This document shows positions 57,348 through 59,621 of a stretch of DNA of 64,000 nt, one piece after another. The first letter of the stretch is position 1. Each line of letters begins with the position of its first letter. The DNA lies in assembly GCA_049969675.1 (NCBI GenBank), contig JBMFOP010000001.1:22546-86545 (forward strand). Reading direction: 5' to 3'. This stretch comes from Myxococcota bacterium (GTDB taxonomy: Bacteria > Myxococcota > SpSt-1050). The position numbers and the translations under genes were made by a program. A model generated the notes under the pieces. The model ran no database searches. It was not told the origin of the DNA and was given only the letters and a program-made list of their open reading frames with translations.

Positions 57348-57737
57348 AGTGATATCAACAATTGTGGAGTATGTAATCAAAAATGTGTCTTTCCCAATGC
57401 AGACCCCGAGTGTGTAAACGGTAGATGTCTGATTAAGAATTGCAAACCAAATTTTAAGGACTGCAATCAAAAACCAGAGGACGGTTGTGAAATAGACATT
57501 TCAAAGGATATACTTAATTGTGGTGATTGTAATTCACCCTGTTCAGCGGATAATGCAACGGTAAAATGTGAGCAGTCAAAATGTGTAATATCTGCCTGTA
57601 ATCTCGGATTTGCAGATTGCGATGGGAATTATAATAATGGTTGCGAAATAAATACAAATACTGATAGTAAAAACTGCGGAGACTGCGGAAATAAATGTAA
57701 ACCAAATGAAATCTGCAAAAATGGCCAATGTAACTGA
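57348..57737 (+). pseudogene. in-frame 129-codon continuation of the Cys-rich repeat protein beyond a TGA, with no start codon
   Basis: Translation SDINNCGVCNQKC...LNCGDCNSPC...KNCGDCGNKCKPNEICKNGQCN continues the DCxxxxxxGCE-spacer-NCGxC repeat periodicity across the TGA at 57345-57347. It contains no ATG, GTG or TTG start. Readthrough, recoding, a nonsense mutation or a sequencing error are all possible. Confidence 0.45.
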
Positions 57738-58593
57738 AGAAGAGATTTCCTCTCCATTTAATTTCTCATATCCCATATCTCTTCCATCTCTAAAAATCTC
57801 TCTATCAGATTTAGGTCAGATAAACCCAATATTGATAGCAGATACAGAGAGTGAAGTCTTCATTATTGATGGTTTTAGAAGGTATAATATATTAAAACAG
57901 CTCGGGGCAGATCCCATATTTTTCAAAGTAAGACCCTTACATATAGAGAATGCCCTTAATGTATATTTAGCAATCAATCTCGAATCCCGTCGTTTTAATA
58001 TTATTGAAAAGATTAGAATATGTAGATTTGTCATTTCAAATAAGATTAATATATCTGAACAGACTCTTCAAAAGGCTGGACTTGGAGATATTTATAAGAA
58101 TAGTGGTCTTTATGAATTTATTGAGAATCTCAATGACAATCTAAAAGATATCATTGTGGAGAAGCGGCTTACAACCTCATTGATAGAAAGGCTTTTAAAA
58201 ATTGGCTATACAAATTCAGAGAAGATACTCCTTTATGCAAGAGATAAATCTCTAACTCATCAACAGACAAGGGAGGTTATAACTGATTTATATCTACTTA
58301 CAATGAAAGGTGTAGATATTGGTCAAATTATTAACGCACTCACAGAAATTTCATTTGAAGAACTAAAAAGGAAAATAAGGGGAATCAAAAATCCATTGCT
58401 TCAAAAAATGGAAGATGAATTTAAGGATTTTATAAAAGACATTAAGAATCTGTCAATTCATCCACCAGAAAATTTTGAAGGGAATAATTACATATTGGAG
58501 GGTAGATTCAGAGATGAGAATGACCTTGAACAGATCTTAAAGGAGATATCAGAGATTAAAGAGAGATGGAAGAGGAATCCAATATTAAAATAG
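57706..58593 (+). CDS. ParB/Srx-like nuclease domain protein
   Basis: The N-terminus ...ILIADTESEVFIIDGFRRYNILKQLGADPI matches the ParB N-terminal (ParBc) DGxxR motif region. No obvious HTH. The start overlaps the end of the Cys-rich extension. The 3' end overlaps the radical SAM gene by 28 nt. Confidence 0.5.
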   Translation: MKSAKMANVTEEEISSPFNFSYPISLPSLKISLSDLGQINPILIADTESEVFIIDGFRRYNILKQLGADPIFFKVRPLHIENALNVYLAINLESRRFNIIEKIRICRFVISNKINISEQTLQKAGLGDIYKNSGLYEFIENLNDNLKDIIVEKRLTTSLIERLLKIGYTNSEKILLYARDKSLTHQQTREVITDLYLLTMKGVDIGQIINALTEISFEELKRKIRGIKNPLLQKMEDEFKDFIKDIKNLSIHPPENFEGNNYILEGRFRDENDLEQILKEISEIKERWKRNPILK

Positions 58594-59621
58594 TCATTGA
58601 TAGTCAATCGCCACGGAATAACTTTGTCAAAGAGATAATAAGAAGGGCACATCTTAACAAAATTGAGATAGTAGAGAATTTAGATACCCAACCAAACCAG
58701 AGAGAGAAACTATTATATATATCGTCCCAGAGAGGTTTTATCCGTCCCTGTCCCTGTTCAAAGAGGTATAGATGTTGTAACTATTTTACCATTGATACTA
58801 TAGAGGGTTGTATCTATGACTGTGAATATTGCATATTAAAATCATTTCTTAATAATTCAAAGATACTCATCAAGGCAGATATAGGAGAGTTGATATCAGA
58901 ATTAAAAGAATTTACGAGTAGAATTTCGGGTGGTGGATTGACTATAAGAATCGGGACCGGCGAGCTAAGCGATTCACTTGCACTTGAAAATATAGCACCA
59001 TTTGCACCCATATTGATTGAGGAGACAAAAGAAAATAATAATCTAATTCTTGAATTTAAGACAAAGAGCAGTAATGTCTCTGAAATCTTAAATCTACCAC
59101 ACAATCCGTTAGCAACAATCTCATTTTCAATGACCACACCATATCTCCATCAAAAACTTGAGACCGGAACACCATCCATAGAGAATAGAGTGGTATCTGC
59201 AAAGAGATGTGTGGAGCACTCATATAGAGTAGGCTTTCACTTTGACCCAATTATATATTATCAAGAATTTGAAAAAGACTATGATGCCATTATAAAGATG
59301 ATTTCACAGAACATCCCTCCGGAGGCGATAAGCTGGGTCTCTCTCGGGACAATTAGATTTAACCCCCTAATGTTTGACATATTTAACAATCCAATCCTTT
59401 TTGGAGAATATATAACTGACCTTGAGAAAAAGTCAAGATACCCATTTGTCTTAAGAAAAAAGATCTACAGAAGCATTACAAGTATGTTCAACCACTATTT
59501 TAATTCAAAGGTAAAATTATATCTATGTATGGAACTGGATATAATGAACAAAATTATATTGGGGAGAACATTTGATTCAGATGAAGAACTAAATAGATAT
59601 ATCATCGGCAAGAATGAATAA
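58566..59621 (+). CDS. radical SAM protein of the spore-photoproduct-lyase-like (COG1533, DNA repair photolyase-like) family
   Basis: FIRPCPCSKRYRCCNY, then the CxxxCxxC cluster CIYDCEYCIL. The overall length (351 aa) and the VGFHFDPIIY segment parallel the SplB family. Confidence 0.6.
   Translation: MEEESNIKIVIDSQSPRNNFVKEIIRRAHLNKIEIVENLDTQPNQREKLLYISSQRGFIRPCPCSKRYRCCNYFTIDTIEGCIYDCEYCILKSFLNNSKILIKADIGELISELKEFTSRISGGGLTIRIGTGELSDSLALENIAPFAPILIEETKENNNLILEFKTKSSNVSEILNLPHNPLATISFSMTTPYLHQKLETGTPSIENRVVSAKRCVEHSYRVGFHFDPIIYYQEFEKDYDAIIKMISQNIPPEAISWVSLGTIRFNPLMFDIFNNPILFGEYITDLEKKSRYPFVLRKKIYRSITSMFNHYFNSKVKLYLCMELDIMNKIILGRTFDSDEELNRYIIGKNE

Follow-up and report, generated by a model that had tools for sequence, protein, structure and literature searches.

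Overlapping genes for a ParB-like protein and an SPL-like radical SAM enzyme in Myxococcota: a conserved and repeatedly fused pair that may act on nucleic acid

The gene pair and its locus

We analysed a stretch of 64,000 nucleotides (nt) from a Myxococcota bacterium (assembly GCA_049969675.1, contig JBMFOP010000001.1, positions 22,546 to 86,545; hereafter the window), in which the gene for a ParB-like protein ("the partner") overlaps the gene for a radical S-adenosylmethionine (SAM) enzyme of the spore photoproduct lyase (SPL) family ("the enzyme"). The original prediction, made from the sequence, had described these two open reading frames (ORFs), their motifs and the overlap between them, all of which we could confirm:

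57721..58593, + strand: gene of the ParB-like partner, 290 amino acids (aa); as first listed, the ORF spanned 57706..58593 (295 aa); with FIIDGFRRYNILKQLG
58566..59621, + strand: gene of the SPL-family radical SAM enzyme, 351 aa; with FIRPCPCSKRYRCCNY and CIYDCEYC
58566..58593, + strand: overlap of the two genes, 28 nt; the purine-rich AAAGAGAG stands just before the ATG of the enzyme gene

Both genes are real, as follows from near-identical proteins at NCBI and from the recurrence of the overlap in four orthologous loci. P0001 ("SPL family radical SAM protein") has the same sequence as the enzyme (100% identity), and P0121 ("ParB N-terminal domain-containing protein", 290 aa) is 99% identical to the partner, both coming from a Myxococcota metagenome-assembled genome (MAG); the 28-nt overlap is identical in loci L001-L004, the flanks of which differ. 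The overlap and the purine-rich stretch inside the last codons of the partner gene suggest translational coupling of the enzyme gene. The 295-aa ORF that was initially reported does exist; nevertheless, translation of the partner more likely starts at its second ATG, at 57721 (MANVTEE..., 290 aa), than at 57706, because the close homologs are all 290-291 aa long and because the resulting 17-nt overlap with the end (57737) of a preceding gene for a Cys-rich protein then matches that in L001-L004.

Coupling of the two genes across genomes

The enzyme-side dataset consisted of 80 loci from species-representative genomes (30-39% identity), look-up loci and the window, 89 loci altogether, of which 85 had enough upstream sequence for the presence of the partner to be judged. 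Partners were collected with a hidden Markov model (HMM) seeded from the window clade alone, from which enzyme ORFs were excluded because fusion forms had drawn them into the profile; the model gathered 37 partner ORFs in round one and 43 at convergence. In 42 of the 85 loci, representing more than 15 lineages, the partner gene directly precedes that of the enzyme in the same orientation, and all partner matches in about 0.86 Mb of loci adjoined the enzyme. The junctions are mostly overlaps of 4-35 nt or gaps shorter than 40 nt. The co-occurrence in other genomes, on which the original prediction had depended, is thus borne out, also by the reverse comparison and by the fusions described below.

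The pair is carried by many phyla, the hosts being mostly anaerobic: the window clade (Myxococcota), Aminicenantes, Acidobacteriota/Terriglobia, Thermodesulfobacteriota, Syntrophaceae, Desulfobacteraceae and KSB1, furthermore Aerophobetes, Wallbacteria, Deferribacter, the Marinimicrobia type, a MAG labelled Lentisphaeria, and others. Of the cultivable carriers, Deferribacter thermophilus possesses both genes, and relatives of Desulfurivibrio, Desulfobulbus and Leptospira possess the enzyme gene alone. Loci lacking the partner fall into few clades, namely Desulfobulbales (0 of 22 with partner), Nitrospinaceae, spirochaetes and some singletons, and the partner is present on most deep branches of the neighbour-joining tree of the enzyme. 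When the comparison was started from the partner, the enzyme lay directly downstream in all three look-ups and was found downstream in 56 of 58 metagenomic loci of the Thermodesulfobacteriota type, in 53 of them within 600 nt and in three behind an inserted small gene. The breadth of this reverse comparison is that of three look-ups and of one narrow, single-lineage alignment, broad partner alignments having offered no conserved stretch.

Some individual loci deserve mention. Small unrelated insertions that keep the order of the pair were seen in L109 (a predicted membrane protein) and L065 (an esterase-like fragment), and in L094 and L120 partner and enzyme are spaced by ~800 nt. Loci L009, L010, L023, L078 and L081 are labelled as uncultured Eubacteriales or Clostridia, yet they show the exact synteny of Aminicenantes (GcpE, PP-loop, 2-Hacid_dh, PNP, partner, enzyme, ExbD/ExbB, SecDF), whilst L058, although labelled in a similar way, is flanked by other genes; the taxonomic assignment of these bins looks doubtful.

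Fusion proteins

Enzyme variants of greater length (about 430-490 aa), present in Omnitrophota, WOR-1 and others, carry at their N-terminus ~100 aa that correspond to columns about 150-275 of the partner HMM, i.e. to residues about 140-246 of the window partner; this segment was found in about 30 of 36 long enzyme representatives. A further protein, P0320 (705 aa), unites the full partner (HMM columns 8-316, E 6.5e-49) and the full enzyme in a single ORF, which was confirmed on contig L092 at 3795-5912. Additionally, P0207 and P0224 are triple fusions of a PNP_UDP_1 domain, the partner segment and the enzyme. The fusions are, in our view, the best support for a joint action of both window proteins in physical contact. 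Residues about 140-246 of the partner are presumed to bind the enzyme, because it is this part that is fused to the enzyme elsewhere.

The radical SAM enzyme: family and active site

The enzyme possesses, within a partial TIM barrel, the CX3CX2C motif of the SAM-binding [4Fe-4S] cluster that characterises the radical SAM superfamily; it matches the SPL family PF20903 with 74.5 bits (Pfam gathering cut-off 27) and shares the architecture peculiar to SPL outside the radical SAM core. It stays far below the cut-offs of TIGR04070, the equivalog of spore photoproduct (SP) lyase (86.4 vs 400 bits), TIGR03886 (36.9 vs 437) and NF038135 (20.6 vs 430). The SPL-like assignment made initially therefore stands at the level of the family, but not at that of SP lyase itself. 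A profile built from 16 family members matched Geobacillus SP lyase over nearly its full length (E 7e-38). MqnE was the second-best structural match. The subfamily counts about 305 clusters (50% identity, E <= 1e-30). Its motifs are located in the window enzyme as follows:

58749..58784, + strand: CPCSKRYRCCNY motif, which holds C62, C71 and Y73
58809..58832, + strand: CIYDCEYC, the CX3CX2C cluster motif (C82, C86, C89)
58947..58976, + strand: RIGTGELSDS, which holds E133 at the position of SPL Cys140
59520..59534, + strand: YLCME, an invariant C-terminal motif with the third extra Cys, C321

Residue roles were mapped from the SPL structure paper (PMC3467042), and conservation was counted over 341 unique family sequences, with the following correspondence between SPL and the enzyme:

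SPL C90, C94 and C97 (cluster ligands): enzyme C82, C86 and C89, invariant
SPL Tyr96 (SAM contact through the backbone): enzyme Y88, kept in 340/341
SPL Lys174 and Ser195 (SAM contacts): enzyme K167 and S188, kept
SPL Arg273 and Lys309 (SAM/phosphate contacts): enzyme R264 and K289, invariant or nearly so
SPL Cys140 (hydrogen-atom donor; Cys141 of Bacillus subtilis): enzyme E133, not kept (Glu in 333, Gln in 7, Asp in 1 of 341)
SPL Tyr98 (radical relay; Tyr98/Tyr99): enzyme I90, not kept (Ile, Phe or Val; Tyr in 34/341)
SPL Arg193 (thymine contact): enzyme S186, not kept (Ser, Ala or Gly)
SPL Glu268 (thymine contact): enzyme G261, not kept (Gly)

A further thymine-contact residue of SPL, Tyr339, could not be aligned. 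The enzyme family has, in addition, the extra invariant cysteines C62 (340/341), C71 (341/341) and C321, and Y73 is also conserved. In the sequence alignment, C62 falls on SPL Ser76, which is the position of the donor Cys in clostridial SP lyases; its counterpart in the structure 4RH0 is residue 76, a Cys in the printed chain sequence of what we take to be an engineered S76C/C140A mutant. C62 might donate hydrogen or bind a metal. The FIRPCPC...CC.Y motif, which had been considered a mark of the SP lyase type, turned out to be a signature of the present subfamily and is missing from Geobacillus SPL. The catalytic residues of SplB, whose presence had been proposed for verification, are likewise replaced in the window enzyme, with Glu standing for Cys141 and Ile for Tyr99. 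On this comparison, the enzyme would share with SPL the fold and the grip on a phosphodiester-linked substrate, while its target and the end of its radical cycle would differ.

Automatic names given at JGI read "spore photoproduct lyase", and one could regard the enzyme as an ordinary SplB ortholog with a ParB-like gene beside it by chance, or else the pair as a mobile or defence module. We hold either to be extremely unlikely. We rejected canonical SP lyase identity on the equivalog score and on the loss of the catalytic Cys and Tyr and of the thymine contacts; the adjacency of the two genes is conserved across phyla, the flanks are of housekeeping type and the pattern on the tree looks vertical. 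PADLOC returned no matches, those to PHROG were weak and generic, and no relatives were detected in viral contigs, so that the defence or mobile-element explanation was rejected.

The ParB-like partner: fold and conserved parts

As a single sequence the partner resembles ParB weakly (ParB_N 17 bits; Noc E 0.08), and none of the members of its family has a precomputed Pfam domain. A profile built from the alignment of 30 partners of many lineages, on the other hand, matched the structures of Myxococcus xanthus ParB, Spo0J, Noc and B. subtilis ParB with E-values from 6e-26 to 4e-18, over positions 22-210, and thus over both the N-domain with its nucleotide pocket and the helical domain in the centre; matches to SbnI and SerK reached 1e-6 to 1e-4. 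A fold other than that of ParB, which would have spoken against the original prediction, was thus not what the profile returned, and by these matches the partner is a true ParB/Noc homolog. It has the ParB/Srx N-terminal fold with its GxxR motif; the "nuclease" that had been attached to the gene is merely the historical name of the domain. Concerning the C-terminal ~200 aa, for which a profile comparison had been recommended, the central domain matches ParB, whereas the last ~85 residues are family-specific, with no match in Pfam or the PDB. No profile match extends past position about 229, and the C-terminal dimerisation domain of ParB is absent. The parts of the partner that we could delimit are:

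57871..57882, + strand: GFRR (G51-R54), counterpart of the ParB nucleotide-pocket motif GERR, with Phe for Glu
57973..57990, + strand: INLESR (I85-R90), counterpart of ParB box III (ENLQR)
58138..58458, + strand: helical segment (about residues 140-246), fused to the enzyme N-terminus in other lineages; holds the near-universal positions E185, K216, K223 and P225
58438..58590, + strand: C-terminal beta-beta-alpha module, family-specific, with near-invariant F252-E253

Residues of the pocket for cytidine triphosphate (CTP) are kept in the window partner in box I (S27, G32, P36), in G51-x-x-R54 and in N86-L-x-x-R90, with Phe replacing the catalytic Glu of GERR. Box III is retained in the window clade and in the main group and is deleted in the large Marinimicrobia-type group. 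The window partner may therefore have a nucleotide switch; given that box III is missing and GxxR changed in partners of the Marinimicrobia type, such a switch cannot be essential throughout the family or the core of its function. In a set of 110 unique partners, P36, K97, E185, R216, R223, P225, F252 and E253 are conserved universally, and most of these lie outside the nucleotide pocket; the window partner has K216 and K223, where about 80% of the family has Arg. The association with ParA and parS that is typical of chromosomal ParB was not seen in the window, where the partner gene sits between those of a lipoprotein and of the radical SAM enzyme. A gene for a P-loop ATPase of the ParA/CbiA/MipZ type (L092:6029-7081) follows the fusion ORF in L092 and was seen in that locus only.

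Relatives of ParB, KorB and Noc can be regulators, and half of the enzyme loci have no partner; hence, the ParB-like protein might be a mere transcriptional regulator or an independent organiser of DNA, co-transcribed with the enzyme and forming no complex with it. We regard this as very unlikely, since the fusions are of three independent kinds, one of them full-length, the genes overlap and appear translationally coupled in most loci, and conservation of the partner is highest in the C-terminal module and in the segment known from fusions rather than in the helix-turn-helix (HTH).

Neighbouring genes and competing explanations

Within the window the pair is flanked by two further genes:

56100..57737, + strand: gene for a Cys-rich lipoprotein with MopE motif, first of a three-gene string found in the window clade only
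59768..60367, convergent: RdgB/Ham1 gene (PF01725, 216 bits)

The order of the Cys-rich gene and its 17-nt overlap with the partner gene are repeated in L001-L004, where it occupies the upstream slot and the other flanks vary; outside the window clade it is missing near the pair, so that a functional link is no more than possible. An in-frame TGA at 57345-57347 interrupts it at a codon for Ser or Gln in the orthologs, and the frame past this TGA stays open and conserved for another 130 codons, to 57737. Either a recent nonsense mutation or an error of the MAG consensus (TCA to TGA, one base) may account for the stop. The ~840 nt 5' of this gene (55259-56099) contain no ORF of at least 60 aa and no tRNA or Rfam match, and could serve as promoter region for the string of three genes; a scan of 55200-59900 for promoters and terminators gave no more sites than shuffled sequence, and scans for tRNAs and Rfam families gave no match near the locus. 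Elsewhere in the window, positions 62500-64000 seem to differ from the remainder in composition and ORF pattern, with only short low-complexity ORFs on both strands.

RdgB is indeed encoded convergently downstream, as had been noted, yet its adjacency is not conserved in the comparison with L001-L004: beyond the window it was seen only in L002, with a second gene for a Cys-rich secreted protein (L002:9108-9689) in between, and an SHMT/GCV_T gene takes its place in L003 and L004. RdgB was consequently ruled out as a part of the module.

Two other gene families accompany the pair in other genomes. A PNP_UDP_1 gene adjoins the pair or the long enzyme in 18 loci (L005, L008, L021, L034, L047, L079 and others); its products reach no NCBIfam equivalog, the weak best matches being DeoD, AMP nucleosidase and 5'-methylthioadenosine/S-adenosylhomocysteine (MTA/SAH) nucleosidase, and may scavenge 5'-deoxyadenosine. 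Furthermore, an orthologous soluble family 2 glycosyltransferase (GT2), 40-59% identical between phyla, is encoded directly upstream of the pair or of the lone enzyme in 25 of the 89 loci, upstream of the fused gene in L092, and upstream of the partner in 56 of 56 testable metagenomic loci of one lineage. Examples of the GT2 gene are:

L024:2577-3410
L065:2442-3272
L034:2487-3290
L092:2899-3726

Such neighbours invite an explanation in which the pair belongs to a pathway for a small molecule or glycoconjugate: the 5'-deoxyadenosyl radical would be used on a metabolite, as by HpnH, MqnE or ArsS, adenine would be removed by PNP_UDP_1 and the sugar handled by GT2, with the ParB-fold protein as a kinase or another helper dependent on nucleoside triphosphates (NTP), like SerK, SbnI or sulfiredoxin. 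The combination of radical SAM enzyme, nucleosidase and glycosyltransferase would follow the logic of the hopanoid, futalosine or arsenosugar routes. In the first two of these routes a radical SAM enzyme is known to work with a PNP_UDP_1 nucleosidase, which supports this explanation, as do the above frequencies of GT2 and PNP_UDP_1, the fusion of the latter in P0207 and P0224, the tight operon GT2-PNP-partner-enzyme in L034, and the rank of MqnE among the structural matches. However, the partner profile prefers chromosomal ParB/Noc, including the central domain, over SbnI and SerK, no orthologs of GT2 or PNP were found within the 64-kb window, and scavenging of 5'-deoxyadenosine accounts for PNP_UDP_1 equally well. 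We therefore judge a metabolite pathway to be unlikely, albeit the most serious of the competing explanations.

Alternatively, the same two-subunit machine might work on RNA, e.g. on a base of tRNA or rRNA. The retained phosphate and SAM contacts would suit RNA and DNA alike, and the HTH recognition motif is lost; the context is of housekeeping type, with genes for a tRNA synthetase and a Sua5/YrdC-like ORF, identified by eye from the translations, nearby in the window, and TruD and TGT in other loci. Nonetheless, the sole characterised member of the enzyme fold family works on DNA, ParB/Noc-type proteins bind DNA, and SSB, DnaN, MutS/MutL or an HhH-GPD glycosylase are encoded near some loci, each in one lineage; the SSB gene 3' of the enzyme, for instance, is confined to the Desulfobulbales group and was counted as one lineage event. 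An RNA substrate hence appears distinctly improbable to us.

Proposed function

The interpretation that we favour, with a little better than even confidence, is that the two proteins are subunits of one machine in which the ParB-type protein would serve as an adaptor placing the SPL-like enzyme on nucleic acid. The [4Fe-4S] cluster bound by CX3CX2C would cleave SAM to yield the 5'-deoxyadenosyl radical, which would take a hydrogen atom from a substrate lodged in the same lateral pocket that accommodates the flipped-out dinucleotide in SP lyase. Most likely the substrate would be a lesion or base of nucleic acid other than spore photoproduct, because residues contacting SAM and phosphate are kept and those reading thymine, together with the Cys140/Tyr98 relay, are replaced. 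An invariant Glu and three extra invariant Cys appear to stand in for this relay, which returns the hydrogen atom in SP lyase; since that return path is gone, SAM would probably be consumed rather than regenerated. Consumption of SAM would in turn make the adjoining or fused PNP_UDP_1 a possible remover of 5'-deoxyadenosine. Inhibition of radical SAM enzymes by this product is relieved by MTA/SAH nucleosidase.

The partner, most likely a DNA-associated and possibly nucleotide-gated adaptor, would tether or position the enzyme by means of the segment at residues 140-246 and the C-terminal module, and its ParB N-domain could add nucleotide-dependent behaviour in lineages with an intact pocket. 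A precedent on which we base the role of adaptor is DpdB, a ParB-fold ATPase required by the DNA transglycosylase DpdA (PMC10164549). Homologs of splB from COG1533 are, moreover, LexA-regulated in many phyla (PMC4951493, PMC8565304, PMC3323433), which supports DNA damage as a theme of the SPL superfamily, without being evidence for the present subfamily. Altogether, the analysis establishes homology, folds, conservation of motifs, coupling of the genes and their fusions, whereas we infer complex formation, a nucleic-acid substrate, the SAM stoichiometry and nucleotide gating, and consider action of enzyme and partner on DNA a reasonable assumption.

Several observations weigh against this interpretation. 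Half of the enzyme loci have no adjoining partner. The basic recognition-helix motif of the ParB HTH is not conserved, though homology persists over this region, with the profile match reaching position 210, and the window partner is acidic overall, with an isoelectric point of 6.1. Marinimicrobia-type partners lack box III and have an altered GxxR. The GT2 gene conserved beside the pair is unaccounted for by a DNA-repair model, and the splB genes under LexA control are members of other SPL subfamilies (NF038135 gives the enzyme no more than 20.6 bits). Finally, the complex and its binding to DNA are predictions from sequence.

More tentatively, we suggest that a ParB-type adaptor that rides on DNA and is possibly gated by CTP or another NTP might deliver the SPL-like enzyme for a DNA chemistry not yet described. 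A lesion not caused by UV, for instance a dihydropyrimidine, might be reversed oxidatively, in which case Glu133 would act as the base and C62, C71 and C321 would form an auxiliary metal or Fe-S site; alternatively, the enzyme might install a new base modification, which would then be glycosylated by the linked GT2. If true, this would be the first DNA machine of a ParB-fold protein and a radical SAM enzyme, widespread in uncultured anaerobic phyla and equipped with its own 5'-deoxyadenosine nucleosidase.

Both parts are of known kinds and their database names are generic; the novelty lies in their coupling, which is conserved, in the fusions and in the changes to the active site. In the literature open to our search, we found no description that links a ParB-like protein with SP lyase or an SPL-family radical SAM enzyme. 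To our knowledge, SP lyase is the only characterised radical SAM enzyme of DNA repair. In regard to the role of the many SP lyase homologs in organisms that do not form spores, the analysis delimits one clean subfamily with its own active-site set and a partner of the ParB/Noc type, while the fusions yield predictions that can be tested, namely the enzyme-binding segment, the consumption of SAM and the assistance by a nucleosidase. To the ParB field it offers, next to DpdB, DndB and SspE, a branch of the CTPase-fold family that is coupled to an enzyme and includes natural variants without the nucleotide pocket. Should the substrate be DNA, the pair would represent a new dark, oxygen-independent route of repair or modification in anaerobes.

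Comparison with known systems

SplB (TIGR04070; PDB 4FHC, Geobacillus thermodenitrificans) is only 17% identical to the enzyme. In place of its Cys140 there is an invariant Glu, Tyr98 is not kept, R193 is replaced by Ser or Ala and E268 by Gly, whereas the invariant Cys 62, 71 and 321 are additions of the enzyme, which has a dedicated ParB-like partner and occurs mostly in lineages not known to form endospores.

The CTP-dependent DNA clamps ParB, Spo0J and Noc (PDB 7BNK, 6SDK, 7NG0) differ from the partner in the Glu of GERR, which is Phe, Trp, Tyr or His in the latter, and in the basic HTH recognition motif, which the partner lacks. A family-specific segment and the beta-beta-alpha module replace the C-terminal dimerisation domain, and the partner is coupled or fused to an enzyme, with no ParA/parS context in the window.

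Similar in organisation is DpdA-DpdB (PMC10164549), where a ParB-fold NTPase is indispensable to the base-flipping enzyme that modifies DNA and is encoded alongside. The comparison concerns the ParB fold. The catalytic component there is a TGT-like transglycosylase and not a radical SAM enzyme; DpdB, moreover, has a DGQQR motif and another C-terminal domain, and the system resides in a restriction-modification island.

The LexA-regulated "splB" genes of COG1533, or Rv2578c family, similarly encode radical SAM proteins of the SPL superfamily in non-spore-formers and are linked to DNA damage by their regulation, but they constitute another subfamily (NF038135, 20.6 vs 430), for which no ParB-like partner has been reported.

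The pairs HpnH-HpnG and MqnE-MqnB, lastly, resemble the related loci in which PNP_UDP_1 adjoins or is fused to the radical SAM enzyme; they differ in that the present window contains no PNP_UDP_1 and that the PNP_UDP_1 proteins of the related loci remain below all equivalog cut-offs.

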